NCBI GenBank assembly: GCA_945885475.1
Contig: CAMCYR010000002.1
Coordinates: 37,633 to 101,632, forward strand
Length of the DNA: 64,000 nt
Reading direction: 5' to 3'
Source of the DNA: Chitinophaga pinensis
GTDB lineage: Bacteria; Bacteroidota; Bacteroidia; 2-12-FULL-35-15
The notes under the pieces are model-generated. The model saw only the letters and a program-made list of their open reading frames with translations. It was not told the origin of the DNA and searched no databases. Of this stretch, positions 12,801 to 57,407 are shown in pieces. Position 1 is the stretch's first letter. Each line of letters begins with the position of its first letter. Position numbers and translations under genes: made by a program.

Positions 12801-15800
12801 TCACTGATTGTTTTTGTTTCTACGAATTGTGGTTCAACGTGGTCGAGGGTTTATTCTAAAGGAGGAACAGGATTAGCGACTGCAGCAGATAATGCAACTA
12901 CCGTTTTTGTTCCTACCGCAGCGCAATGGAGAACAGAAACAGTGAGCATGACTCCTTATGCCGGACAAGCAAATGTGATGGTGAAATTCCAAAATAAATC
13001 TGGATGGGGACAAATTCTTTATTTAGATAATATCAATATCACCGGTATAGGCGCCCCGGTTGCCGGTGTTACAATTGCATCAAATGATGCTGATAATGTG
13101 ATTTGTGCAGGAACATCTGTTACCTTCACGGCAACTCCTACAAACGGAGGAACAACTCCTACGTATCAATGGCAGGTTAATGGTGTGAATGTTGGTGGGG
13201 CAACCGCTTCAACTTTTACGACATCAACTATAACTACAGGTCAAATTGTAACATGTAACATGACTTCAAGTCTGGCGGGTGTTGTGGGAAGTCCGGCTCC
13301 TTCCGGCCCGATAACAATGACTGTTAATCCATTGCCAGCTACCCCAACACCAGGTAGTAATTCCCCGGTTTGTGTTGGTTCAACAATTAATTTAACGTCG
13401 TTTACTGTTGCTGGTGCAACCTACAGCTGGACTGGTCCTGGAGCTTTTTCTTCTTCATTGGAGGATCCAACCCGTCCTGGCGCTTCATTATCAATGGCAG
13501 GAACATACAGTTTAACTGTAACTGTCGGTGGATGTGCCAGCTTGGTGGGAACCACTGTCTTAGTTGTAAACGCATTGCCAACAACACCTACTGCTGGAAG
13601 CAATTCTCCTGTTTGTGTAGGAAGTATAATCAACTTAACCTCAAATACTGTTGCCGGTGCAACCTACAGTTGGATCGGACCAGGTGCATTTTCTTCCGCG
13701 CTAGAAGATCCAAGCCGTCCATCTGCTTCAACAGCAATGGCTGGAACATATAGTTTAACAGTAACCGTTGCTGGCTGTTCAAGTGCTGTTGCAACAACAG
13801 TGGTTGCAGTAAATACAGCACCAGCAACACCAACAGTAGGAAGCAGCACTCCAGATTGTGTTGGACAAACTATGAGTTTAACATCAAATACAATAGCAGG
13901 TGCAACGTATAGTTGGACAGGACCAGCAGCATTTAATTCTGCATTAGAAGATCCAACTCGTCCTTCAGCAACTCTTGCAATGGCAGGAACCTACAGCTTA
14001 ACAGTTACAGTAGCTGGTTGTACAAGTGCTATGGCAACAACAACGGTTGTTGTGAATGCATTGCCAGCAACTCCAGTTCCAAGTATAAACGCAAGTACAA
14101 CTCCTGCTGCAATTTGTGCAGGTGGTACAATTACTTTAACTACTCCTAATTTGGGTGCTGGTTTCACTTATAGCTGGACTGGCCCCAATAGTTATGCTGC
14201 CGCTGTAAGAAATCCTCCAGCTTTAACAAGTGTTACAACAGTAATGGGTGGAACGTATTCATTGACGGTTACCAATGGTGGTTGTTCAAGTTTAGCGGGA
14301 ACGGTTACTATTGTAGTGAATCCGACTCCTGCAGCACCAACTGCCGGAAGTAACTCTCCTGTATGTACAGGCTCTTCAATTTTATTGACTTCAAATACCG
14401 TTGCGGGTGCTACTTACGCTTGGACCGGTCCAAGTACTTTCACCTCAGCATTAGAAGACCCTTCTCGTCCTACTTCAACATTAGCAATGGCTGGAACATA
14501 CAGCGTAACCGTTACTGTGGCAGGATGTACAAGTCCTGCAGGAACAGTAGTTGTTGCAGTTAGTGGTAGTGTTGTTCCTACAAATGCAATTACAGCAAGT
14601 CCAAGTGGTGCTATTTGTGCTGGAACTTCCGTTACGCTCACGGCAAGTGCTGGTGGAGGTGGAACAACTCCAACATATCAATGGCAAGTAAATGGAAGTA
14701 ATGTTGGAACAGGCGGAACAACATACACTTCAAGTGCGTTAACAAGCGGACAAATTGTAACATGTATATTAACGTCAAGCTCTTCTTGTGCTGTTCCAAC
14801 TACAGCAACGTCCAATACAATTACAATGCTTGTAAATCCAGTTGTAGTGCCTTCGGTAAGTGTTGCGGCTAGTCCATCAGGAGCAATTTGTAATGGAACA
14901 TCAGTGGCGTTTACTGCAACCCCAACAAATGGCGGAACAACTCCAACATACCAATGGCAAGTAAATGGAAGCAACGTAGGAACAGGTGGAACAGCATATT
15001 CAAGTTCAGCCCTTGCAAGTGGAGATGTTGTAACTTGTACAATGACATCCAATGCAACATGTCCATCTACAGCTACCGCAACATCAAGCGGAATAACAAT
15101 AACAGTGAATCCAACGATAACTCCAGCGGTAAGTGTTGTTGCAAGTCCTGCTGGTGCAATTTGTTCAGGAACATCTGTATTGTTTACAGCAACCCCAACA
15201 AATGGTGGAACAACTCCAACGTATCAATGGCAATTGAATGGAAGTAACGTAGGAACAGGTGGAACAACGTATACAAGTGCCTCACTTGTAAATGCTGATA
15301 TTGTAACTTGTACTGTCACATCCAATGCAATATGTGCTAGTTCGCTTACAGGAACAAGTACAGGCATTACAATGGTTGTAAATCCAACCCCTGCAACGCC
15401 AACCATTTCTGTGTTAGGATCAATATTAACATCTAGTTCTCCAACAGGAAATCAATGGTATTTAAATGGAATATCTATAGCAGGTGCGACTAACCAAAAC
15501 TATACGTTTACAGCAAATGGAACGTATACCGTTATTGTAACAGTAGTTCCTTGTTCATCGGCCGAATCAGCTCCTGAAGTGATTACTACTACTGGAATAG
15601 AAGATGCAAGCAATCAATATGGATTAAACATTTATCCAAATCCAAACGATGGAAACTTCAACATCTTATTCAATGCAAATGTTGTTGCAGATTACACCAT
15701 TGAATTGACAAATGCTTTAGGTCAATTGATTCACAAAGAAGAGTTGAAAAACTATTCTGGTGCGTATAGAAAACCATTTAGTGTTGTTGATTACGGAAAA

Positions 15801-16477: not shown

Positions 16478-16528
16478 GCACTTCGACTTTAGTTTATGGT
16501 GAGCGGAGTCGGATCCACTCCGTGTGAC
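16478..16528. repeat. Degenerate copy of the CGAGCGGAGTCGAG (REP-like) family
   Basis: cacttcgac...GAGCGGAGTCGgatcCACTCCGtgtgac, an internal palindrome in the nuoA-nuoB gap. Confidence 0.45.
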
Positions 16529-16578
16529 AAAGAGAGTAGAGAGTTCGTGTATTAATAAAATTATTGTTAGAACAAATT

Positions 16579-16608
16579 CCCCCTTTGAAAAAGGGGGTTA
16601 GGGGGATT
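16579..16608 (+). repeat. GGGG-hairpin intergenic repeat (nuoA-nuoB gap)
   Basis: CCCCCTTTgaaAAAGGGGG tta GGGGGATT. Confidence 0.5.
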
Positions 16609-22639: not shown

Positions 22640-23686
22640 ATGACATTAGATTTTCTGATTTATAAAATTATTTTAGTGTTGATTGTTTTTTCAATCACAT
22701 TATTGGTGGCGACATACAGCACCTATGCCGAAAGAAAAATTGCGGCTTTCCTTCAGGATCGTATCGGTCCGGACAGAGCTGGCCCATTCGGAATTCTTCA
22801 GCCATTAGCCGATGCTGTTAAAATGTTCATGAAGGAAGAAATTATTCCGAACGTTTCTAACAAGGCGCTCTTTGTTTTAGGTCCCGGAATTTGCATGCTT
22901 ACCGCTTGTATGACGGGTGTTATTATTCCATGGGGTAAAACAATTAACATAGGTGGAACCGATTATCCCTTGCAAATTGCAGATGTAAATATCGGGATCC
23001 TCTATTTGTTTGGCGTACTTTCATTAGGGGTCTATGGTATTATGATTGGAGGTTGGGCATCAAATAATAAATACTCATTGCTTGGTGCTATCCGCGCTTC
23101 TTCACAAATGATTAGCTACGAAGTTGCAATGGGAATCTCCATTATTGCTTTGGTAATGACCACGGGAACGTTGAGTACCGCTGAAATTGCAGCTCAACAG
23201 CATGGATGGCACTGGAACGTGTTGATCCAGCCTCTGGGTTGTCTGATCTTTATTATCTGCGCATTTGCTGAAACAAATCGCGCTCCTTTCGATTTACCTG
23301 AGTGTGAAACAGAACTTGTTGGCGGTTACCATACTGAATACAGTTCAATGAAACTTGGTTTGTTCTTGTTCTCTGAATATATCAACATGTTCATTTCCTC
23401 CGCTGTGATTGCTACTTTTTATTTTGGTGGGTACAACATGCCCTTGATCGGACGATGGGTGCATGATCCGAATGCGTTAGCGATTCTTGGAATTGTTTTC
23501 CTATTCATGAAAATTGTCGGATTTATATTTTTCTTCATGTGGGTGCGCTGGACATTACCCCGCTTCCGCTATGATCAACTGATGAATCTGGGATGGAAGA
23601 TTTTAATTCCTTTGTCAATATTGAACCTGGTATTAACAGGCGCATGGATGATGCGTCATGAGATCATGGTTTATTTTGTAAAATAG
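22640..23686 (+). CDS. nuoH: NADH-quinone oxidoreductase subunit H
   Basis: RKIAAFLQDRIGPDRAGPFG...ETNRAPFDLPE.E.ELVGGYH.EYSS. Confidence 0.95.
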   Translation: MTLDFLIYKIILVLIVFSITLLVATYSTYAERKIAAFLQDRIGPDRAGPFGILQPLADAVKMFMKEEIIPNVSNKALFVLGPGICMLTACMTGVIIPWGKTINIGGTDYPLQIADVNIGILYLFGVLSLGVYGIMIGGWASNNKYSLLGAIRASSQMISYEVAMGISIIALVMTTGTLSTAEIAAQQHGWHWNVLIQPLGCLIFIICAFAETNRAPFDLPECETELVGGYHTEYSSMKLGLFLFSEYINMFISSAVIATFYFGGYNMPLIGRWVHDPNALAILGIVFLFMKIVGFIFFFMWVRWTLPRFRYDQLMNLGWKILIPLSILNLVLTGAWMMRHEIMVYFVK

Positions 23687-24267
23687 TTGGCAGTTGGCAA
23701 TTAAAATAGTTGGCAAAGGAGAAGTAATAAAATAATAGTTCTTTTAAATATATGGGAAGTTTCAGAGATTTGAATGTTTACAAAAAAGCATTTGATTTAT
23801 CAATGCTAATTTTTAAAGAATCAAAAAAATTTCCAAATGAAGAGAAATTTGGTCTAACAAGTCAAATTAGAAGATCATCTCGTTCTGTTTGTTCGAATGT
23901 TGGTGAGGGTTATAGAAAAAGACTTTACCCTGCTCATTTTGTAAGCAAATGTTCAGATGCAGACATGGAAAACAGCGAGACTCAAGTATGGTTAGATTTT
24001 GCTTTGGCTTGTGAATATATAGAGAAAGAGCAGTTTGATGAATATTTAAAACGTTCAGAAGAAATAGGTAGGATGATCGGGCACATGATCGAGAATCCAG
24101 AAAAATATAAAGGAAAATAAATGCAGTTGGCAATTAAAAAAGTTGGCAATTCGCAAAAATAAAATTTAAGAAACAGATTAAGTATAAACAGGTTGACATT
24201 AGAAGAGTTTGCTTACAAAATGACTGAAATCATTTTCCAACTTTTTTAATTGCCAACTGCCAACTGA
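23685..24267. mobile_element. ~580-bp cassette carrying a second four-helix-bundle gene. It is flanked by direct repeats and ends in a 144-bp element with 28-bp terminal inverted repeats.
   Basis: The direct repeat is AGTTGGCAGTTGGCAATTAAAAtAGTTGGCAA (23685-23716), matching CAGTTGGCAATTAAAAAAGTTGGCAA (24124-24150). Its reverse complement CCAACTTTTTTAATTGCCAACTGCCAACTG lies at 24238-24267, right against the nuoI start. Confidence 0.5.
23752..24120 (+). CDS. Four-helix-bundle protein of the 23S rRNA IVS family (TIGR02436-like), second copy
   Basis: ...NVYKKAFDLSMLIF...KFPNEEKFGLTSQIRRSSRSVCSNVGEGYRKR...ENSETQVWLDFALACEYI is a canonical pattern. The protein has diverged from the copy at 17899. 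Confidence 0.8.
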   Translation: MGSFRDLNVYKKAFDLSMLIFKESKKFPNEEKFGLTSQIRRSSRSVCSNVGEGYRKRLYPAHFVSKCSDADMENSETQVWLDFALACEYIEKEQFDEYLKRSEEIGRMIGHMIENPEKYKGK

Positions 24268-30948: not shown

Positions 30949-32196
30949 ATGAAATTTAAAAAACCATCGCTCATTGTTCAGATATTTTCAGGAATGCTCC
31001 TGGGAATCATTGTTGGATATTTCTGGAAAGACTTCGCACCAAGTTTGCACATTCTGAGCGATATTTTTATGCGCTTCATCAAAATGATCATTGCTCCACT
31101 GGTATTCTCCGTATTAGTGGTTGGTGTTGCCAAGGTGGGCGACTTTAAATCTGTAGGACGAATAGGAATAAAGACACTTTTGTATTTTACAACAGCTGCA
31201 ATTATTTCATTATTATTGGGATTAATGCTGGTGAATGTTTTTGCTCCCGGTAAAAAAATGCATCTGGAATTGCCCCCGGTTGATGCTGAAGTAGGTGTTC
31301 AGGTAGCGAAAGAATTTGACACAAAAAATTTTATCAATCACATTATCCCTGAAAGTATTGTGGATGTGATGGCTAAAAACGAAATATTACCCATCGTTAT
31401 TTTTGCTTTGTTTTTTGGTATTGCTGCGGCATCTGTTGGTAGCAAAGGAAAAGTGGTGGTCGATTTTTTCGATTCTATTTCTCACATCATGTTTAAGGTT
31501 ACTAATTATGTAATGTCTTTTGCTCCCTTTGGCGTGTTTGGTGCTTTAGCTGCAGTGGTCGCAAAGCAAGGACTGGGCGTTCTCACGGGTTATCTCTACC
31601 TGATCGGAACATTCTATCTCGGATTATTTTTGTTTGTTTTCGGGGTGTTATTTCTGATTTGTTTTTTCATGAAAATAAATTTTTTCAAACTGCTGAACTA
31701 CATCAAAGAACCAATTTTGCTGGCTTTTAGTACGGCAAGTTCAGAAGCGGCAATGCCAAAAACAATTGAGTCGCTCGAACGATTTGGTTGCGGTAACCGG
31801 ATTGTAAGCTTTGTTTTGCCACTTGGGTATTCTTTTAACCTTGATGGTTCTATGATGTACATGACTTTTGCTACCGTATTTATTGCTCAGGCTTACGGTA
31901 TAGAAATGTCTGTTGGTCAGCAGATCACGATGTTGTTGATTTTGTTAATTACCAGTAAAGGGGTAGCGGGAATACCTCGTGCCTCACTTGTTGTTATTGC
32001 AGGAATGCTTGCTCACTTTAATATTCCTGTTGCAGGATTGCTGTTATTGTTGGGCATCGATCAGATTTTAGATATGGGACGCTCCGCAACCAATGTAGTA
32101 GGGAATGCTGTTGCAACAGTCGTCATCTCCAAATGGGAAGGGGAGCTCCATGAGCATAAGGTCAATCCCGACATTGATAAAGTAAAATTGGATTAA
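30949..32196 (+). CDS. Dicarboxylate/amino acid:cation symporter (DAACS family, GltP/DctA-like)
   Basis: It is 415 aa with multiple transmembrane segments and carries conserved DAACS motifs (…PLGYSFNLDGS…, …IDQILDMGRSATNVVGNAVA…). Confidence 0.85.
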   Translation: MKFKKPSLIVQIFSGMLLGIIVGYFWKDFAPSLHILSDIFMRFIKMIIAPLVFSVLVVGVAKVGDFKSVGRIGIKTLLYFTTAAIISLLLGLMLVNVFAPGKKMHLELPPVDAEVGVQVAKEFDTKNFINHIIPESIVDVMAKNEILPIVIFALFFGIAAASVGSKGKVVVDFFDSISHIMFKVTNYVMSFAPFGVFGALAAVVAKQGLGVLTGYLYLIGTFYLGLFLFVFGVLFLICFFMKINFFKLLNYIKEPILLAFSTASSEAAMPKTIESLERFGCGNRIVSFVLPLGYSFNLDGSMMYMTFATVFIAQAYGIEMSVGQQITMLLILLITSKGVAGIPRASLVVIAGMLAHFNIPVAGLLLLLGIDQILDMGRSATNVVGNAVATVVISKWEGELHEHKVNPDIDKVKLD

Positions 32197-32256
32197 TTTT
32201 AGTAAAATAATTTCATACAAAAGTCGAAACATTAATTTGACGTCACCCTGAGCCCT

Positions 32257-32362
32257 GTCAGTTCGAGCGGAGTCGATTGTCAGTTCGAGCGGAGTCGAGA
32301 ACAAGATTAATAATAGTAAAGAAAAATGCTTGTCGCCAGTCACTTCGAGCGGAGTCGAGAAG
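32257..32362. repeat. Three tandem units of the CGAGCGGAGTCGAG (REP-like) family
   Basis: tGTCAGTTCGAGCGGAGTCGAttg, GTCAGTTCGAGCGGAGTCGAGAAc and GTCACTTCGAGCGGAGTCGAGAAg. Confidence 0.6.
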
Positions 32363-33009
32363 CAAAGGGCTTAATTCATAGCACAGTGATAGAATTCCTA
32401 AAACAACTTACCGATCCCCATTCCATCATACAATTTGGTGGAATCGCCCTTTTGCTTTTTGTGATATTTGCTGAAACGGGTTTGTTGGTCGGTTTTTTCC
32501 TTCCCGGTGATTCACTTGTTTTTATTTCAGGAATGGTCTGTGTTTCAAAGCCGGAGCTTCTTGGAGTAAATCTTCCCGTTTTGATCTTGTCATTGTCGGT
32601 AGCAGCTATCGTTGGAAATGTTGCCGGTTATTGGTTCGGCAAAAAGGTTGGTACTCCCTTGTTTCAACGAACAGATTCTTTTATCTTTAAAAAGCGATAC
32701 TTGGAAGTTACCCGAAGATTTTATGCTAAAAATGGGGGCAAAACACTCATTATTGGGAGGTTTTTGCCCATCATACGCACTTTTGCACCCATTCTTGCCG
32801 GAGTTATCAACGTTGATTTTAAAAAATTTATGGTGTACAATATCATTGGAGCCTTCGCTTGGATCGGCTCCCTGTGTAGCATCGGATATTTCCTTGGAAC
32901 GCATAAATGGGTCCAGGAAAATATTGGCGCCATTGTGATCGGACTAATTATTATCACTGCCATTCCTGTGCTTACCACCTTCCTTCAAGAAAGAAAAAAT
33001 AAACAATGA
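32326..33009 (+). CDS. DedA family (VTT/SNARE-associated domain) membrane protein
   Basis: GFFLPGDSL and ...IGRFLPIIRTFAP... are the motifs. The first 20 codons of the tracked ORF are translated REP repeat sequence. The true start is probably the GTG at 32386, by alignment with the paralog at 33014. Confidence 0.8.
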   Translation: MLVASHFERSREAKGLIHSTVIEFLKQLTDPHSIIQFGGIALLLFVIFAETGLLVGFFLPGDSLVFISGMVCVSKPELLGVNLPVLILSLSVAAIVGNVAGYWFGKKVGTPLFQRTDSFIFKKRYLEVTRRFYAKNGGKTLIIGRFLPIIRTFAPILAGVINVDFKKFMVYNIIGAFAWIGSLCSIGYFLGTHKWVQENIGAIVIGLIIITAIPVLTTFLQERKNKQ

Positions 33010-43566: not shown

Positions 43567-43652
43567 AAAACCTTACAACATAATAGCTGTAAGGTTTCTT
43601 TTTGCTCCCTCTGCTGGACTTGAACCAGCGACCCTCTGATTAACAGTCAGAT
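43567..43652 (-). repeat. att-like direct repeat, copy 1. It is a 48-nt copy of the 3' half of tRNA-Asn (43605-43652) plus an adjacent terminator hairpin (43571-43595).
   Basis: On the minus strand CTGACTGTTAATCAGAGGGTCGCTGGTTCAAGTCCAGCAGAGGGAGCA is identical to the anticodon-stem-to-3'-end of the intact tRNA at 51319-51392. There is no 5' half, D-arm or acceptor partner. The hairpin is CCTTACA...TGTAAGG. Confidence 0.75.
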
Positions 43653-43768: not shown

Positions 43769-44209
43769 TTACAGCATGCCTTCATCAGCAAATGAAAAAT
43801 ACCCTTCATCAGTTATAATCAAATGATCTATTAAGACAATATCCATTATTTTACCTGCTTCTTTTAGACTTTTGGTGATTTTCTGGTCTGCTTCACTAGG
43901 CTTTAAATTACCACTTGGATGGTTGTGGCAAAGAATGATTGAACTGGCATTTGATTTTAAAGCTGTCTGAAATACAACTTTAGTATCTACTATTGTTCCT
44001 GATGTCCCTCCAAGTGATATTTTACTATATCCCAACACCCTATTTGCTCGATTTAAGAGCATTAAATACATTTCTTCAATATACTGAAGCCTATCACTCC
44101 AAATTGCTCTAAACTGCGTTTCTGCATCTCTAGAAGTAACAACTTTTGGTAGTTCAGAGAGCTTATTTTTGTACTGATAATTGATTGATATTTCACATAA
44201 TGTTTCCAT
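43769..44209 (-). CDS. RadC-like JAB/MPN domain protein
   Basis: ...IILCHNHPSGNLKPSEADQKITKSLKEAG..MDIVLIDHLII carries the H.H...(S/D) JAMM motif. Confidence 0.8.
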   Translation of the reverse strand: METLCEISINYQYKNKLSELPKVVTSRDAETQFRAIWSDRLQYIEEMYLMLLNRANRVLGYSKISLGGTSGTIVDTKVVFQTALKSNASSIILCHNHPSGNLKPSEADQKITKSLKEAGKIMDIVLIDHLIITDEGYFSFADEGML

Positions 44210-45981: not shown

Positions 45982-46797
45982 CTAAAATCTTATTCCGACA
46001 TTAATACCGAGTCTAAATAGGAGGTTGTCATAATATGGAAAAAAGTCACTAATACCGATATCTATAGCACAAAAAATGGGTTTAATAGGGTGATAAACTA
46101 ATCCTCCATAAATGACTCCAGTACCCCAAGATGATTTATCAGTATAGGTTTTATTGTAAACTAAATCTTTAAATTCAAATTCAAATGAACCATATTCAAT
46201 TCCAATTGCTCCAAAACCTCTTAATTTACCTTCTCCAGTTGGATAAAATTTTAAATGGGCTCCAACAGCGAATCCTTTTGTTACGGTAGTGACATATCTA
46301 TTATTATAACTAGGAATATAGCAAAAATATTGAAATCTAGTTGCGCTAGATAATAAATTGGAGGAAGAATACCCTAAGTACAAAGGAATCTTGATAGCCA
46401 ATTTTTGCCTTGCAAAAAAACGTTCATAAGAAATATTGAAATCTTTAAAAAGAAAGGGAACGATATTAATAGAAAATATATTTTTCCCATAAACATTTAC
46501 AAATTTAACTTTTTCCTTAATCTGTGGTTCAGAATTAGTTGGAGGTATAATTACATCATTTTTCTTTGCAATTACTTCAGTCTCACCATTTTTATAGATA
46601 ATCATTAAAACATTGCTTTTTGATATTGTATATAAAGGACCTTCAATATTAGAGAATTTTTTATACTTAATTTCTGTAGTGTTTATTTCTATTATTTTAG
46701 TCAAAACTTCAGTACCATCTTTCAAATAAATTTTATCTTGAGAGTAGATTAAAGAAGTTAATAGGAGGGAAGTTATTAATAGGAGTGCTTTTTTCAT
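45982..46797 (-). CDS. Secreted protein with an N-terminal ~70-aa conserved module and a C-terminal putative outer-membrane beta-barrel-like half (paralog A)
   Basis: It has a signal peptide. The N-terminal half is ~95% identical at DNA level to the next gene. The C-terminal half has alternating hydrophobic residues and ends ...GINVGIRF, an aromatic terminus like an OMP beta-signal. Confidence 0.65.
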   Translation of the reverse strand: MKKALLLITSLLLTSLIYSQDKIYLKDGTEVLTKIIEINTTEIKYKKFSNIEGPLYTISKSNVLMIIYKNGETEVIAKKNDVIIPPTNSEPQIKEKVKFVNVYGKNIFSINIVPFLFKDFNISYERFFARQKLAIKIPLYLGYSSSNLLSSATRFQYFCYIPSYNNRYVTTVTKGFAVGAHLKFYPTGEGKLRGFGAIGIEYGSFEFEFKDLVYNKTYTDKSSWGTGVIYGGLVYHPIKPIFCAIDIGISDFFPYYDNLLFRLGINVGIRF

Positions 46798-46827
46798 ATA
46801 TATTAATTATTAAATACAATCTTGATT

Positions 46828-47724
46828 CTAATAACGTACACCTAAACTAATACCAATTCTAGTTAATGTGTTACCAGAATTTTTAAATTTGCCGGGAAAC
46901 GGAGCCGTGGATTTACTAAAACCAATATCAAAAGAGCAAGATAAAAGCTTATTTGGTTGATAGGATAATCCTCCATAGATAATCCCAGAAATAATGGACA
47001 AATATTTATTATAAGAAATATCTGAGAAGTATTGGCAATAATAACCAGTACAGGTTTCATTAATCTGCAATTCTAATTTAGCATATTCAACTCCAATTGC
47101 TCCAAAAGCTCTTAATTTACCTTCACCAGTTGGATAATATTTTAAATGCGCTCCAATTCCCCATCCTTTTATTATTTTCTGAGTTATATATATTCTATTT
47201 TTCATATTATCCGAATAATAATCATCATTGACTGAATAGTATTGAAATCTATTATCGTTAGACAAAAAATTGGGAGAAGAATAATCTAAATAAAAAGGAA
47301 TTTTAATAGCCAATTTTTGCTTTGCAAAAAAACGTTCATAAGAAATATTGAAATCTTTAAAAAGAAAGGGAACGATATTAATAGAAAATATATTTTTCCC
47401 ATAAACATTTACAAATTTAACTTTTTCCTTAATTTGTTTTTCCTCAACTTCTGGTTCAGAATTAGTTGGAGGTATAATTACATCATTTTTCTTTGCAATT
47501 ACTTCAGTGTCACCATTTTTATATATAATCATTAAAACATTGCTTTTTGATATTGTATATAAAGGACCTTCAATATTAGAGAATTTTTTATACTTAATTT
47601 CTGTAGTGTTTATTTCTATTATTTTAGTCAAAACTTCTGTACCATCTTTAAAATAAATTTTATCTTGAGAGTAGATTAAAGAAGTTAACAGGAGGGAAGT
47701 TATTAATAGCAGTATTTTTTTCAT
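46828..47724 (-). CDS. Paralog B of the above. The N-terminal module is the same and the C-terminal half has diverged.
   Basis: N-terminal 120 aa are near-identical to paralog A (DNA 46380-46800 ≈ 47290-47727). The C-terminus ends ...GISLGVRY. Confidence 0.65.
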   Translation of the reverse strand: MKKILLLITSLLLTSLIYSQDKIYFKDGTEVLTKIIEINTTEIKYKKFSNIEGPLYTISKSNVLMIIYKNGDTEVIAKKNDVIIPPTNSEPEVEEKQIKEKVKFVNVYGKNIFSINIVPFLFKDFNISYERFFAKQKLAIKIPFYLDYSSPNFLSNDNRFQYYSVNDDYYSDNMKNRIYITQKIIKGWGIGAHLKYYPTGEGKLRAFGAIGVEYAKLELQINETCTGYYCQYFSDISYNKYLSIISGIIYGGLSYQPNKLLSCSFDIGFSKSTAPFPGKFKNSGNTLTRIGISLGVRY

Positions 47725-47729
47725 ATATA

Positions 47730-48335
47730 TTAATTTCGAACCAATAAATAATAAGTAAAAACATTAACCGCAATACCAATACCAAAACCACCCCAGACGC
47801 GCCCCCATTTCTTTTGCTTCATTTTATGTTTGTATCCACTGAGATAATCTGGATTTTTAATTAAATTTGAATCAGGGTTTGTTTGTTTTATTGCACCAGC
47901 TGTTGGTTTACACAAACCAATTATTAATCCAGTAACAATACCAGCTGGAGAAAATATAATTGTAGGCACAAAAGTGCCCCAAAATGGTTTATAGCTTGTA
48001 TATTTAATTCTAGCATCTTCTTCCCCTAATCTCATCATTTCAGCAGATGACTTTCCAATAGTATTTTCGTTTATACTGTTGTTTTCATTGGCCTTTTTTA
48101 CTTCAGCAAAAACATCTTTATCACCATTTTCATATATAATCATCACTATTTCACTTATAGAAACAACTATTGTAGGGCCATCTTGGTAGTTATATTTTTT
48201 ATATTTAATTTCAGCGGAACCCACTTCTGTTACCTTTGCATCAATATAGTCACCACTATACAAGTATATCTTATCTTGAGAGAATGAATTAAATATTGAT
48301 AGAAAAAAATAGGTGATAAATAATGTTTTTTTCAT
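47730..48335 (-). CDS. Secreted protein with a related N-terminal DKIYL...EIKYKK...IIYENG module (paralog C) and a C-terminal membrane segment
   Basis: Signal peptide MKKTLFITYFFLSIFNSFSQ is followed by the ~70-aa module shared with paralogs A and B. The tracked ORF starts 20 codons earlier, at 48395. Confidence 0.55.
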   Translation of the reverse strand: MKKTLFITYFFLSIFNSFSQDKIYLYSGDYIDAKVTEVGSAEIKYKKYNYQDGPTIVVSISEIVMIIYENGDKDVFAEVKKANENNSINENTIGKSSAEMMRLGEEDARIKYTSYKPFWGTFVPTIIFSPAGIVTGLIIGLCKPTAGAIKQTNPDSNLIKNPDYLSGYKHKMKQKKWGRVWGGFGIGIAVNVFTYYLLVRN

Positions 48336-50900: not shown

Positions 50901-51013
50901 CCTTACAACTTAATAGCTGTAAGGTTTCTTTTGCTCCCTCTGCTGGACTTGAACCAGCGACCCTCTGATTAATCCCGCACGTGCGGGACTCTAACCAGCT
51001 GAGCTAATTTCCC
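50901..51013 (-). repeat. att-like direct repeat, copy 2. It is a terminator hairpin (50901-50925) plus a tRNA-Asn-derived pseudo-tRNA (50934-51013).
   Basis: The 3' 39 nt (50934-50972) and the D-arm (50990-51008) are identical to tRNA-Asn. The acceptor 5' strand and the anticodon stem are replaced (GGGAAAT... and CCCGCACGTGCGGG), so no cloverleaf can form. Confidence 0.7.
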
Positions 51014-51289
51014 TTCTGGTATAAAGTCTGTATTAATCAACTTTTCGATTAGTTTTTTAGACTTCTGTTTTTTGATAAAACGTTCCAATGTTACTGCCTC
51101 AGATTGTGTTCCTGCTTCAAACACTGCTTTCAATTCCGACGGCTTGTGCTTGGAAGAAAATGTTCCTTCTTCTTTTGTATTATGCTGAATCAATCTCTCT
51201 GCAGGACTTTCACTATACCCGATATATGTAATATCGGATTTCAAACTATGAAGAATGTATATGTAGAACACGGGACTAAGGTAAAACAA
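50969..51289 (-). CDS. Small GIY-YIG domain nuclease-family protein, of the type common next to tRNA genes in Bacteroidota
   Basis: FYIYILHSLKSDITYIGYSESPAERLIQHN is a GIY-YIG motif. The last ~15 codons read through the pseudo-tRNA (…LAQLVRVPHVRD). Confidence 0.65.
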   Translation of the reverse strand: MFYLSPVFYIYILHSLKSDITYIGYSESPAERLIQHNTKEEGTFSSKHKPSELKAVFEAGTQSEAVTLERFIKKQKSKKLIEKLINTDFIPEGKLAQLVRVPHVRD

Positions 51290-51318
51290 AAAAGCCTCAC
51301 ATTTCTGTAAGGCTTTTG

Positions 51319-51392
51319 CTCCCTCTGCTGGACTTGAACCAGCGACCCTCTGATTAACAGTCAGATGCTCTAACCAGCTGAGCTAAGAAGGA
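51319..51392 (-). tRNA. tRNA-Asn (anticodon GTT)
   Basis: On the minus strand the sequence is UCCUUCU-UA-GCUC-AGCUGGUUA-GAGC-A-UCUGA-CUGUUAA-UCAGA-GGGUC-GCUGG-UUCAAGU-CCAGC-AGAGGGA-G. The 7-bp acceptor stem has one G-U pair. The anticodon loop CU-GUU-AA gives GUU. The T-loop is GTTCAAGT. The 5' U is as in E. coli tRNA-Asn. A terminator hairpin lies at 51292-51315. Confidence 0.9.
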
Positions 51393-53889: not shown

Positions 53890-53987
53890 TGTCACTTCAG
53901 ACAATGTGAGTTTTGTCATTTCTGAGCTCATCCAATTTCTTTATTTCGAGCGGAGTCGCTTGTTATTTCGACAGCAGTCGAGAAATT
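53890..53987. repeat. Degenerate units of the CGAGCGGAGTCGAG (REP-like) family
   Basis: gtcacttcag...TTCGAGCGGAGTCGct...TTCGAcaGcAGTCGAGAAat. Confidence 0.45.
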
Positions 53988-56750: not shown

Positions 56751-56955
56751 CTTGACATGGACATTTAAGTATAGATAGGGACACTTGGCTTCTCGACTCC
56801 GCTCGATTGACTTGGGACAAATACTTTTCTTACTTATATTCATCTCGTTCTCGACTCCGCTCGATTGACAGTATTTAAATGACAGCTCAATTGATATCAG
56901 ATAGTCAGTTCGAGCGGAGTCGAGAACCGTATTGTACTAAATAGCAGATTTAAAT
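56751..56955. repeat. Composite REP/MITE-like element A (205 bp). It is built from three 22-24-nt CGAGCGGAGTCGAG-family units, two forward and one inverted.
   Basis: cttgacatggacatttaagtatag...TTCTCGACTCCGCTCGATTGAC ×2 ... GTCAGTTCGAGCGGAGTCGAGAAC...agatttaaat. It abuts the stop codon of the TPR gene. Confidence 0.65.
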
Positions 56956-56956
56956 C

Positions 56957-57274
56957 CTAGTCTTCCAGCATCCACAGCGCTTCATTTAATTCGCCAAGTG
57001 CTTTGTTGTTTTTAATGCTTTTTGCAATCGCTATTCCTTTTGTGTATGTGTCGATTGCCTTCGGTAAATCCTGAATTTGCTCGTAAAATTTACCCAATTG
57101 ATAATAGGCGCCTAAATAATTCTCCTCTCTTAAAAGAACATTTTCAATCAGTTCTATTGCTTTATGTACATCATTCGCTTTCGCGAACTCCAGTGCCAAT
57201 GCATAATTTAAGAAGGAGTCGTTTGGCTCCGTTTTAAGCATTTCTTCAATTTGGGATAATCTTGACATGGACAT
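56957..57274 (-). CDS. Small tetratricopeptide-repeat protein (105 aa) tightly bracketed by REP/MITE-like elements
   Basis: ...ALALEFAKANDVHKAIELIE...GAYYQLGKFYEQIQDLPKAIDTYTKGIA are TPR helices. The first 4 codons lie inside element B. Confidence 0.55.
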   Translation of the reverse strand: MSMSRLSQIEEMLKTEPNDSFLNYALALEFAKANDVHKAIELIENVLLREENYLGAYYQLGKFYEQIQDLPKAIDTYTKGIAIAKSIKNNKALGELNEALWMLED

Positions 57275-57407
57275 TTGAGTATAGACAGGTACACTTGGCT
57301 TCTCGACTCCGCTCGATTGACTATATTTAAATGTCCGCTCGATTGATATCAGATAGTCAGTTCGAGCGGAGTCGAGAACCGTATTGTACTAAATAACAGA
57401 TTTAAAT
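57261..57407. repeat. Composite REP/MITE-like element B (147 bp). It is the same as A except that one 52-nt unit is missing.
   Basis: It is ~93% identical to element A over the shared parts and has the same end sequences (cttgacatggacattt...cagatttaaat). Confidence 0.65.

Follow-up and report, generated by a model that had tools for sequence, protein, structure and literature searches.

A TGTCA-tagged hairpin repeat dispersed through Bacteroidota and its linkage to small GIY-YIG genes

In the NTS-ssnA-NTS arrangement, the nuclease binds its hairpin only when this is present in single-stranded form, and the cut falls a few bases upstream of a tag that contains GTC (PMC11893778). SsnA cuts CGTCA-tagged hairpins, with the three bases upstream of the palindrome governing cleavage, and Sphingomonas is among the Ssn hosts (PMC11893778). 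A second relevant group is that of the CGTC/TGTC-tagged REPs, for which no partner enzyme was known until 2025; this superfamily includes Neisseria dRS3/NIME, Rickettsia RPE-4/RPE-6, and has been reported from one Bacteroidetes genome, that of Gramella forsetii (PMC3733652). The general principle of a tagged hairpin that is served by a GIY-YIG nuclease is already published; activity and mobility in the elements considered here are predicted.

Here we analyze a dispersed repeat in a 64-kb stretch of DNA (the window, at its full length), together with its relatives in other genomes. We consider it probable that the repeats are a selfish element of REP-like form, with an Ssn-type GIY-YIG nuclease that acts on single-stranded DNA (ssDNA), and not a RAYT transposase, as the likely partner.

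The repeat unit and its copies in the window

One unit of the repeat is 25 nt long and consists of TGTCA as an unpaired 5' tag, a stem of 4 bp and the invariant core GAGC-N3-GTCGA (GAGCGGAGTCGA in the window), which tandem G.A/A.G pairs together with a single G-C pair can close. The stem sequence is free, yet complementary. The base before TTC is complementary to the base after GAA in 129 of 139 copies, against 59 expected, and among 111 units with other stems, 75 have four of four flanking pairs where 8.5 would be expected. A set of 374 distinct units, picked by the core alone, shows 94-98% pairing at the four stem positions (shuffle means 41-81%), with 2-4 pair types at each; the next two positions outward of the stem are at chance (40% and 21%), indicating that pairing ends at the tag, which is itself unpaired and is kept as T/G/T/C/A in 308/311/329/304/265 of the 374 units (71-88% per position). 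Folding of a single unit, whether as RNA or as DNA, shows no advantage over shuffles (z about 0), so the argument for the hairpin is one of covariation alone, and thermodynamic stability was dropped as evidence for it. Formally, the unit can be drawn as nine positions with a GGAG loop, three of the nine being non-Watson-Crick. Adjacent unit pairs number 73 among 229 units; these gene-less doublets comprise 42 with tags outward (median gap 20 nt), 18 with tags inward and 13 in tandem, and doublet folds reach z of -6 to -8. A search of the whole window against Rfam at gathering thresholds returned tRNA only, and a permissive search of the repeat regions gave chance matches; the repeat is not one of the described RNA families.

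The window contains nine matches to the core TTCGAGCGGAGTCGA at two or fewer mismatches (32262+, 32284+, 32344+, 53945+, 56793-, 56851-, 56909+, 57303- and 57361+); shuffles lead one to expect 0.03, and 0 of 100 reach nine. The 23-mer of a preliminary description of this DNA has five window matches against 0 expected. A covariance model (R1) was trained on 102 units from other genomes; applied to the window without filters, it finds four strong full units, all on the plus strand (32276-32304, 32336-32364, 56901-56929 and 57353-57381; E 3e-9 to 2e-8), three weaker minus-strand units (56846-56872, 56791-56806 and 57301-57316; E 0.002-0.003) and one marginal plus-strand unit (53959-53987, E 0.84). 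The core counts and the model bear out what had been proposed, namely a dispersed family of small imperfect palindromes in both orientations. The inclusion of 16501-16528 in that family does not survive: the model misses it at E up to 10, and all that it has in common with the units is GAGCGGAGTCG and, on the opposite strand, a TGTCA, so that it is a decayed relative at best. We leave this doubtful relative (16498-16529, minus strand; TGTCA followed by a CGGAGT/ACTCCG hairpin that holds GAGCGGAGTCG; DNA fold -5.3 kcal/mol, z -1.25) uncounted.

The block at 32257-32362, taken earlier for three tandem units, resolves into a half fragment, an arm-less unit, a full unit, a 35-nt spacer and another full unit, all on the plus strand. 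The fragment (32241-32253), read directly, is CGTCA-CCCT-GAGC, the left half of a unit with a different stem subtype, and it breaks off immediately behind GAGC; the CCCT/AGGG stem is common elsewhere, and the same break is seen again at 53914-53927 and in another genome stretch (L070). The next unit (32256-32276; direct reading and core match), TGTCA-GTTC-GAGCGGAGTCGA, has no 3' stem arm and is joined by one T to the unit that follows, a junction (GTCGA-T-TGTCA) found again at 53959/53960 and four times in locus L157. The first full unit (32278-32302), TGTCA-GTTC-GAGCGGAGTCGA-GAAC, is an exact 23-mer and the top match of the model (42.2 bits, E 3e-9); the second (32338-32362), AGTCA-CTTC-GAGCGGAGTCGA-GAAG, is likewise a 23-mer and scores 39.2 bits. 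The spacer between them (32303-32337) is a conserved part of a composite module, two units some 35 nt apart, as judged by recurrence of the module: that at 32278-32367 has an inverted copy at 56784-56870, and a copy of its right half follows an unrelated gene in L011, a different metagenome-assembled genome.

Residues 5-12 (SHFERSRE) of the DedA ORF at 32326-33009 are the translation of the unit at 32338-32362, which thus falls within the first 20 codons and inflates the ORF in the way that the preliminary description had suggested. The later GTG start proposed there for dedA is also upheld, since the alignment with the tandem DedA paralogue sets in precisely at V21 (residue 21), GTG 32386. 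Given this start, every window copy sits between long ORFs.

Farther along the plus strand, a left-half fragment, TGTCA-TTTCT-GAGC (53914-53927), is evident from direct reading and scored by no tool. It is followed by a degenerate unit that lacks the 3' stem arm, has a tag decayed to CTTTA and matches the core with one mismatch (GAGCGGAGTCGC; 53939-53959), and by a degenerate full unit, TGTTA-TTTC-GACAGCAGTCGA-GAAA (53961-53985; 11.7 bits, E 0.84; repeat family D6 at 85%), which is shared with a 98%-identical relative (L208) that carries two further substitutions in it. Two minus-strand units whose 5' stem arm is one base short, AGTCA-ATC-GAGCGGAGTCGA-GAAG (56789-56812; 20.5 bits, E 0.003) and TGTCA-ATC-GAGCGGAGTCGA-GAAC (56847-56870; 21.1 bits, E 0.002), together make up the inverted copy of the composite module. 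The latter pairs with a full plus-strand unit, AGTCA-GTTC-GAGCGGAGTCGA-GAAC (56903-56927; 23-mer; 39.8 bits), into a long hairpin with tags inward (DNA fold of 56840-56940, -23.1 kcal/mol, z -6.0). The last doublet lies between pheS and a small TPR gene; its left arm is a minus-strand unit, AGTCA-ATC-GAGCGGAGTCGA-GAAG (57299-57322; core match and model), the stem of which is intact in L208 (C-TTC...GAA-G), and its right arm is a full plus-strand unit, AGTCA-GTTC-GAGCGGAGTCGA-GAAC (57355-57379; 23-mer; 39.8 bits), that ends 10 nt before the pheS stop codon. This doublet folds at -52.4 kcal/mol as RNA (z -8.2) and at -27.4 kcal/mol as DNA (z -6.7), in agreement with the earlier view that inverted pairs form long hairpins. 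The visible effects in the window are the falsely extended DedA ORF and the long hairpins in the pepN-TPR and TPR-pheS spacers; no host function has been demonstrated for the window copies, and their tags are drifting.

Spread and genomic location

The exact 17-mer is present in at least 120 genome stretches, nearly all from Bacteroidota, and is thus not restricted to the loci at which the motif was first seen; among the matches listed are Flavobacteriia, Sphingobacteriia, Chitinophagia, Cytophagia, Bacteroidales and Salinibacter. Copies are intergenic in 112 of 140 cases (roughly 80%), compared with 21% of random positions. The remaining 28 lie in long ORFs, mostly as in-frame inserts (V-x-SSGVE-K/N) in housekeeping genes, so the early statement that units are always intergenic is right for the window and wrong for the family. 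An insert is one 25-nt unit of about eight residues, with one reading frame strongly preferred, and the host genes include HisA (at a position where solved homologues have a gap), metH, purL, leuS and argS; the copies in conserved genes are inserts that occur in several reading frames and in genes that are unrelated, and do not form a conserved coding motif. Viral contigs yield five exact matches in 2.9 million (a count with no chance baseline) and eight distant protein relatives, and phage was rejected as the main carrier of the element. A literature string search with the core and its variants returned primer coincidences only, the RepRanger paper giving no sequence for the core.

Between the window and the 98.35%-identical relative (L208) differences cluster in tags and spacers, with about 17 in some 360 nt of spacer and 0 in the 318-nt TPR gene, and no presence/absence polymorphism is found between these two near-identical relatives, all units being common to both. 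In another relative (L072), the stretch that separates pheS from the TPR gene is free of units, and one of opposite orientation follows the TPR gene.

Units flanking small GIY-YIG genes

A physical association with small GIY-YIG genes is evident from the loci that carry the repeat. In 3 of the 120 unit-selected loci listed (L012, L057 and L077), a small GIY-YIG gene is directly flanked by units, that of L077 (4211-4531) belonging to Psychroflexus planctonicus, and the intact small GIY-YIG copies at unit loci have Pfam PF01541 (E 1e-15 to 1e-16) as their sole significant domain. In the reverse test, which took 80 metagenome loci encoding relatives of this protein (43-72% identity), a unit lies within 200 nt of the gene in 58 and on both sides in 48; the density of units is 3.1 per kb near the gene and 0.04-0.15 per kb beyond 400 nt, a 20- to 80-fold difference. 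The nearest upstream unit is on the plus strand and the nearest downstream unit on the minus strand in 37 of 49 loci, which places the tags outward. Spacing is 7-40 nt between unit and start codon and 1-30 nt between unit and stop codon; with a gene of about 100 codons, this gives a cassette of 370-450 bp, the ends of which have no visible target-site duplication. In three loci (L139, L142 and L175), the cassette ends on the right with TGTCAGTTCGAGCGGAGTCGAGAAC, a unit present in exactly this form in the window. The cassette proteins are 95-114 aa long with a single GIY-YIG domain, and their alignment (A2) keeps Y7, Y17, G19, R27, H31 and E66. GIY-YIG genes of Methylobacterium and Sphingomonas are 40% identical to the cassette protein (E 2e-15 and 9e-12), and the Sphingomonas plasmid homologue is itself flanked by GTTCA-GGCT-GAGCGAAGTCGA-AGCC units.

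There is no cassette of this GIY-YIG type in the window and some 13 kb beyond it (about 7.7 kb to the left and 5.7 kb to the right), and those two flanks have no further units. The window's own GIY-YIG gene (50972-51271) was rejected as the cognate nuclease: it belongs to another lineage, is 28% identical, has no flanking units and is tied to tRNA-Asn and another palindrome. In L208, this gene coincides with a 100-N scaffold gap. The window copies are most probably non-coding orphan copies of a tagged DNA-hairpin element.

We infer that the cassette GIY-YIG protein binds and cleaves the units, and we propose a route of spread along the following lines. The hairpin would extrude where DNA is single-stranded, as in replication, repair or uptake; the cognate nuclease would recognize tag and hairpin and nick beside the hairpin, its predicted substrate being single-stranded TGTCA-GTTCGAGCGGAGTCGAGAAC; and repair or recombination at the nicks could copy, delete and rearrange units, with singletons, gene-less doublets, fixed-junction tandem arrays and in-frame inserts in genes as the expected products. 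Points against this explanation include that GIY-YIG nucleases cut and do not ligate, that mobility has to our knowledge not been demonstrated even for SsnA, and that the window doublets have their tags inward, which is the minority arrangement. A bolder reading, which we offer tentatively and think somewhat doubtful, is that a TGTCA/GTTCA tag, a free 4-bp stem, a GAGC-N3-GTCGA core with tandem G.A pairs and a GIY-YIG gene of about 100 aa together define an undescribed autonomous selfish lineage, active across Bacteroidota and reaching Alphaproteobacteria, that is the source of orphan hairpins and of in-frame inserts in essential genes. If so, it would rank with the smallest autonomous elements of bacteria (only about 0.4 kb), and its ssDNA nuclease specificity would be new and outside the published SRM consensus, which might extend the Ssn paradigm to UPF0213-like proteins.

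The linkage could also be a matter of target choice, with the small GIY-YIG gene a homing-type parasite of doublet spacers and the units an independent REP-like family that is moved or kept in some other way. GIY-YIG enzymes are classic homing endonucleases, the commonest doublets are those with tags outward, and the cassettes resemble such doublets with a gene in the gap; moreover, the left and right units of one cassette often differ in their stems, and orphan units outnumber cassettes, as the 3 flanked genes in 120 listed unit loci indicate. We nevertheless regard this as unlikely, given that no other candidate mobilizing enzyme was found next to units and that the distances from unit to start and stop codon are tight and regular; SsnA, too, binds the NTS hairpin itself and cuts beside it (PMC11893778), so that specific recognition of the unit is expected under either reading. 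Much less probable still is a classic REP/BIME (REPIN) family mobilized by a RAYT, an IS200-like Y1 HUH transposase with one gene per genome. The form of the repeat would suit such a family, with imperfect palindromes of 25 nt, a conserved unpaired 5' tag, doublet hairpins and a mostly extragenic location, and RAYT subclasses 2.4 and 2.6 occur in Bacteroidetes (PMC6006769). However, the tag is TGTCA and not GT[AG]G, the REPs given for the Bacteroidetes RAYT subclass 2.6 have a different sequence (GCTAGCGCGAGCGTCCCGCTCGTG), the core is identical across the phylum, unlike species-specific REPs, the unit-bracketed gene is a GIY-YIG gene in 58 of 80 loci, and for REPs with a CGTC/TGTC tag Di Nocera et al. 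found no linked transposase (PMC3733652). A jackhmmer search from an IS200 TnpA seed found no IS200/Y1-type ORF in the window and 1.22 Mb of loci that carry units, an absence that weighs little because RAYTs are single-copy. The preliminary description of a REP/BIME-style family is therefore accurate as to form (dispersed, mostly intergenic, with doublet hairpins) but not as to the implied RAYT partner; where it had suggested looking for a RAYT-like transposase, the gene bracketed by units encodes a GIY-YIG protein.

That the units are host cis-elements, whether terminators or attenuators, mRNA-stabilizing hairpins or binding sites for a conserved host protein, and that the core is kept by host function, seems to us quite improbable. 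Identity of the 12-nt core across Bacteroidota classes suggests strong constraint, doublets give very stable transcript hairpins, and copies are depleted in divergent (promoter) spacers (10, compared with 20 in convergent and 57 in tandem spacers). Set against this, a terminator and promoter scan of 32100-32500 is empty, the units are not followed by a U-tract, both orientations to the upstream gene are represented (57 sense, 40 antisense), a single unit is no stable hairpin, and no Rfam family matches. Units are also translated as inserts inside essential genes, their tags and spacers drift between 98%-identical strains, and the presence of a copy varies between related spacers, as seen for the pheS-TPR spacers of L072 and the window.

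Implications and comparison with known systems

Units in Bacteroidota genomes and metagenome bins yield false N-terminal extensions, as for DedA here, and short "hypothetical proteins", as well as odd 8-residue inserts (SSGVE, LDSAR, FERSRE, RAESR) in housekeeping proteins; recognizing the unit removes such errors. The linkage gives an uncharacterized and very common Bacteroidota GIY-YIG family a predicted substrate that is unlike the published consensus, and the identical 17-mer in unrelated genera is explained by cassette linkage. There is demand for site-specific ssDNA nucleases as tools, and every further hairpin-nuclease pair offers a candidate for a new specificity.

Rickettsia palindromic elements (RPEs) resemble the repeat in their in-frame insertion into conserved housekeeping genes, but are 100-150 bp long and genus-restricted, whereas the insert here is one 25-nt unit. 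The REP/BIME/REPIN-RAYT systems of Proteobacteria likewise consist of small imperfect palindromes outside genes, each with a conserved tag 5' at the hairpin foot, and form long hairpins from inverted doublets; in both cases repeats flank a small nuclease gene (REPtron-like) and action on ssDNA is presumed. They differ in the tag, which is GTAG/GTGG there (0-2 nt 5' of the hairpin) and TGTCA here, in the enzyme, a Y1 HUH transposase that cuts and rejoins there and a GIY-YIG nuclease here, and in range, REPs being species-specific. The CGTC/TGTC-tagged REPs (Di Nocera et al. 2013, PMC3733652) share a terminal unpaired CGTC/TGTC tag followed by A (the TGTC positions are each present in about 81-88% of the 374 units here), a predominance of tags-outward dimers, in-frame intragenic copies and the lack of a linked transposase; the composite unit-spacer-unit modules here recall NIMEs. 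The families described there have perfect 8-9 bp stems that open with complementary A-T pairs, 4-5 nt in the loop and a CCA-like tail of 3 nt, while here only four Watson-Crick pairs covary, the A after the tag is at chance (40% vs 42%) and no tail is conserved.

The closest solved sequences to the cassette protein are those of UPF0213/COG2827, BH0048 (PDB 1ZG2, E 8.7e-11) and EF2693 (PDB 1YWL, E 1.6e-6). Cassette and UPF0213 proteins are both single GIY-YIG domains of about 100 aa, and we know of no repeat partnership described for the latter; by gene-repeat architecture, the cassette protein is likely Ssn-like. As in the Ssn/NTS system (Chenal et al. 2025, PMC11893778), in which dispersed copies number in the hundreds, there is an oriented unpaired 5' GTC tag (CGTCA there; TGTCA here, which fits the HGTCW start of the published SRM pattern), a gene for a GIY-YIG-only nuclease of about 95-107 aa bracketed on both sides (48 of 80 loci here, compared with 42% with the SRM pattern there) and a similar spacing of the catalytic Tyr/Tyr/Glu (Y7/Y17/E66 here, Y6/Y17/E64 there). 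The differences lie in the hairpin, with a free 4-bp stem and a GAGC-N3-GTCGA core with G.A pairs here and a perfect 9-bp ATTCCCGCG stem there, and in a host range that is Bacteroidota-wide here. The full SRM pattern, HGTCWYN(0-2)YYVSBRHN(0-5)WNVSBRGN(0-2)RNCYNB, which matches the NTS control, matches 0 of 208 units near GIY-YIG genes and none in the window. The element is REP-like in form and Ssn-like in its probable partnership.

A covarying tagged hairpin and its spread

The 15-nt core TTCGAGCGGAGTCGA matches nine times in the 64 kb of the window (<=2 mismatches) against 0.03 expected, and the 23-mer on which the preliminary description had built a REP-like family occurs five times against 0 expected, so the repeat family is real. 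A base-by-base reading gives four intact units on the + strand (32278-32302, 32338-32362, 56903-56927 and 57355-57379), three on the - strand whose 5' stem arm is one base short (56789-56812, 56847-56870 and 57299-57322), two that have no 3' stem arm and are linked onto the unit that follows (32256-32276 and 53939-53959), a degenerate unit (53961-53985) and two left-half fragments. A covariance model trained solely on units of other genomes finds the same set; it does not recover 16501-16528, which had been counted as a member and which we exclude. A different short repeat-like motif, cccctttgaaaaagggggttagggggatt (16575-16606), adjoins this doubtful element (16498-16529). The REP-like form had been read correctly: copies stand in both orientations, and inverted doublets (adjacent inverted pairs of units) fold strongly, with z of -6 to -8.

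The architecture of the unit emerges from copies in other genomes. In an alignment of 139 flanked copies of the exact 17-mer, TGTCA is conserved five bases upstream, and the base before TTC is complementary to the base after GAA in 129 copies vs 59 expected, as G:C, T:A or C:G. Units from the same loci that share just the core GAGC-N(2-4)-GTCGA differ widely in their flanks (GTTC/GAAC, CATC/GATG, CCCT/AGGG, GGCT/AGCC and others), and all four flanking positions are paired in 75 of 111 of them vs 8.5 expected. When 374 distinct units are picked solely by their core, pairing reaches 94-98% at the four stem positions, where shuffles average 41-81%, and each position uses two to four pair types; pairing ends abruptly at the tag, where the values of 40% and 21% equal chance. 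Since pairing is confined to four positions and ends at the tag, the unit consists of the tag, a 4-bp stem, the invariant core and the 3' stem arm. One way of drawing the core gives G.A, A.G and G-C plus a six-base loop. A single unit folds no better than shuffled sequence in nearest-neighbour folding (z about 0), so it is covariation, and not predicted stability, that supports the hairpin.

Classic REPs are species-specific, whereas this family is not restricted to a few loci: the exact 17-mer is carried by at least 120 genome stretches from about 100 genomes. Among the matches listed, nearly all hosts are Bacteroidota, including Flavobacterium, Maribacter, Mesonia, Psychroflexus, Chitinophaga, Sphingobacteriaceae, Algoriphagus, Bacteroidales, Saprospiraceae and Salinibacter, and the few matches outside that phylum are also tagged. 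The motif is rare in viral contigs, and no Rfam family matches it. Crude ORF calls place 112 of 140 copies between genes, vs 21% of random positions; divergent spacers are under-represented among those bearing units, and units run both with and against the upstream gene (57 sense, 40 antisense). The statement that the repeat is always intergenic thus stands for the window, where all copies lie between long ORFs, but not elsewhere, where the remaining 28 lie inside long ORFs. Those 28 fall in several frames of unrelated genes, among them metH, purL, leuS, argS, hisA, wecB, hsdM and a GH3 glucosidase; one frame, read as V-x-SSGVE-K/N, serves 15 of 27 inserts, and the HisA position is a 4-residue gap in solved homologues. 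The intragenic copies are inserts rather than a conserved coding motif. In-frame single-unit inserts in these genes come from the comparison loci L022, L023, L026, L027, L050, L061, L067, L080, L084, L090 and L103; most of them give V-x-SSGVE-K/N, and some, translated from the other strand, give x-LDSAR-x-D.

Physical linkage to a small GIY-YIG nuclease gene

A CGTC/TGTC-tagged REP superfamily has been defined for which no transposase is known (Di Nocera et al., PMC3733652). SsnA, a 94-aa protein made up of a GIY-YIG domain alone, binds CGTCA-tagged hairpins (NTS, generalised as SRM) and cuts them, in both cases only as ssDNA; its gene is typically repeat-flanked (Chenal et al., PMC11893778). 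We examined linkage both ways, from units to genes and from genes to units. Of the 120 loci selected by units, L077 (Psychroflexus planctonicus) and L012 have a small GIY-YIG ORF with units immediately on either side, and L057 has one as a pseudogene. An alignment of these three proteins was used to fetch 80 metagenome loci with relatives 43-72% identical; a unit lies within 200 nt of the GIY-YIG gene in 58 of the 80 and on both sides in 48, and units number 3.1 per kb close to the gene, compared with 0.04-0.15 per kb more than 400 nt away. The tags point outward in 37 of 49 loci (nearest upstream unit +, nearest downstream unit -). The resulting cassette is regular, running TGTCA-hairpin, 7-40 nt, ATG, ~100 codons, stop, 1-30 nt, hairpin-TGACA over 370-450 bp, with AT-rich, unconserved DNA outside; no target duplication is visible at the ends of the cassettes read. 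The right end of several cassettes is the window's own unit sequence. A Sphingomonas plasmid encodes a homologue (40% identity, E 9e-12) that stands between same-core units with the tag GTTCA, so the pairing of hairpin and nuclease crosses phyla.

The RAYT partner (an IS200-like Y1 transposase) that the preliminary description had proposed to look for is not supported: a search of 1.22 Mb of unit-bearing loci plus the window found no IS200/RAYT-like ORF, and the REPs listed for Bacteroidetes RAYT subclass 2.6 differ in sequence from these units, which bracket the GIY-YIG gene instead.

L205 (Spirosoma oryzicola plasmid NZ_CP089542.1) has a further GIY-YIG gene, around 48003-48296, bordered by TGTCA-tagged hairpins. 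Their build is a third one, TGTCA-TCCC-GAG-GAA-CGA-GGGA-TC, which keeps the inner GAG...CGA but has a loop of 3 nt; Bacteroidota would thus seem to have a broader range of tag-hairpin-nuclease pairs. The window itself encodes, at 50972-51271 (-), a 100-aa GIY-YIG protein of a different widespread Bacteroidota lineage (548 matches), just downstream of tRNA-Asn (51318-51392, -) and with a tRNA-like tail (50929-51010). Its C-terminus, LAQLVRVPHVRD followed by the stop, is invariant in every context read (window, L223, L224, L225 and L226) and is encoded by a tRNA-Asn-like D-arm plus the perfect palindrome TCCCGCACGTGCGGGA, which stands in place of the 5' half of the anticodon stem, the remainder of the tRNA then following. 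The palindrome is similar to the NTS stem of Neisseria and is present three times around the tRNA of L223; one possibility is that this lineage is a tRNA-targeting GIY-YIG cassette equipped with a hairpin of its own.

State of the window copies and neighbouring repeats

Neither the window nor the 13 kb read past its ends contains a cassette of the unit-bracketed type. On a contig 98.35% identical over 17.9 kb (L208), all units are at the same positions, and the differences are concentrated in tags and spacers (about 17 in ~360 nt, vs 0 in the 318-nt TPR gene), the pattern that decaying orphans, units without a cassette gene, would show. An inverted copy of the unit-spacer-unit module 32278-32367 stands at 56784-56870, and another metagenome-assembled genome has the module's right half after an unrelated gene; composite pieces, and not just single units, are thus copied. 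In a more distant relative (L072; pheS 73% identical), no unit lies between pheS and the TPR gene and one unit of opposite orientation follows the latter; spacer occupancy thus changes over longer time. The ORF of DedA from ATG 32326 runs through the unit 32338-32362, and similarity to the adjacent paralogue begins at residue 21, GTG 32386, which supports the later start and agrees with the earlier suggestion that the repeat inflates this ORF.

A local duplication (56751-56955 / 57261-57407, 94-95% identity) places the pheS-TPR spacer with its doublet on the other side of the TPR gene as well, together with 18-20 nt from the end of pheS and 14 nt (ATGTCCATGTCAAG) from the start of the small TPR gene; its downstream copy has one extra unit plus spacer (58 nt). 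Because it is common to L208, it is not recent. The 3' part of tRNA-Asn is present three times (43600-43652, 50929-50981 and 51314-51366, the first and last 100% identical); the copies at 43.6 and 50.9 kb share a terminator-like hairpin, and the stretch of about 7.3 kb between them, with a RadC-like ORF (43769-44209), looks like an island integrated at tRNA-Asn. Inverted repeats on AGTTGGCAGTTGGCAATTAAAA (23685-23720, 24123-24149 and 24230-24265; 92-96% complementary, about 85-510 nt apart) are unrelated to the TGTCA-tagged family. Long tandem coding repeats at 13090-15288, in units of 243-273 nt, lie in a large ORF, which we take to be Ig/PKD-like from similar ORFs called on the same contig, and 46048-47735 is a duplicated gene pair, 83-96% identical.

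Proposed mechanism and relation to the Ssn/SRM system

By analogy with the SsnA work, the hairpin would form when the DNA is single-stranded, the GIY-YIG protein would read tag and hairpin and nick alongside, and repair or recombination at such nicks could multiply and rearrange the units. In the main rival reading, the nuclease gene may instead be a homing parasite whose targets are doublets that existed before it. The window has the junction GTCGA|T|TGTCA twice (32256-32302 and 53939-53985) and L157 has it four times (1880-1960), in tandem arrays where each unit, without its 3' stem arm, is joined on to the next; the L157 units are of another stem and core subtype and lie immediately upstream of a GIY-YIG gene. 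Unit fragments end exactly after GAGC. The fixed junction and this break hint at defined cut or join points.

In favor of a nuclease partnership of the Ssn type, the HGTCW tag, the single-domain nuclease and the bracketed gene are common to both systems, whereas the hairpin departs from the published SRM hairpin. The SRM pattern, whose NTS control matches, finds 0 of 208 units beside GIY-YIG genes and none in the window, and the nearest solved relatives of the cassette protein are UPF0213 proteins; we therefore say that the cassette probably works like an Ssn-hairpin pair, and place it as a variant rather than a proven member. Taken together, the evidence favours a GIY-YIG partner of the Ssn type, paired with a hairpin whose architecture lies outside the published consensus.
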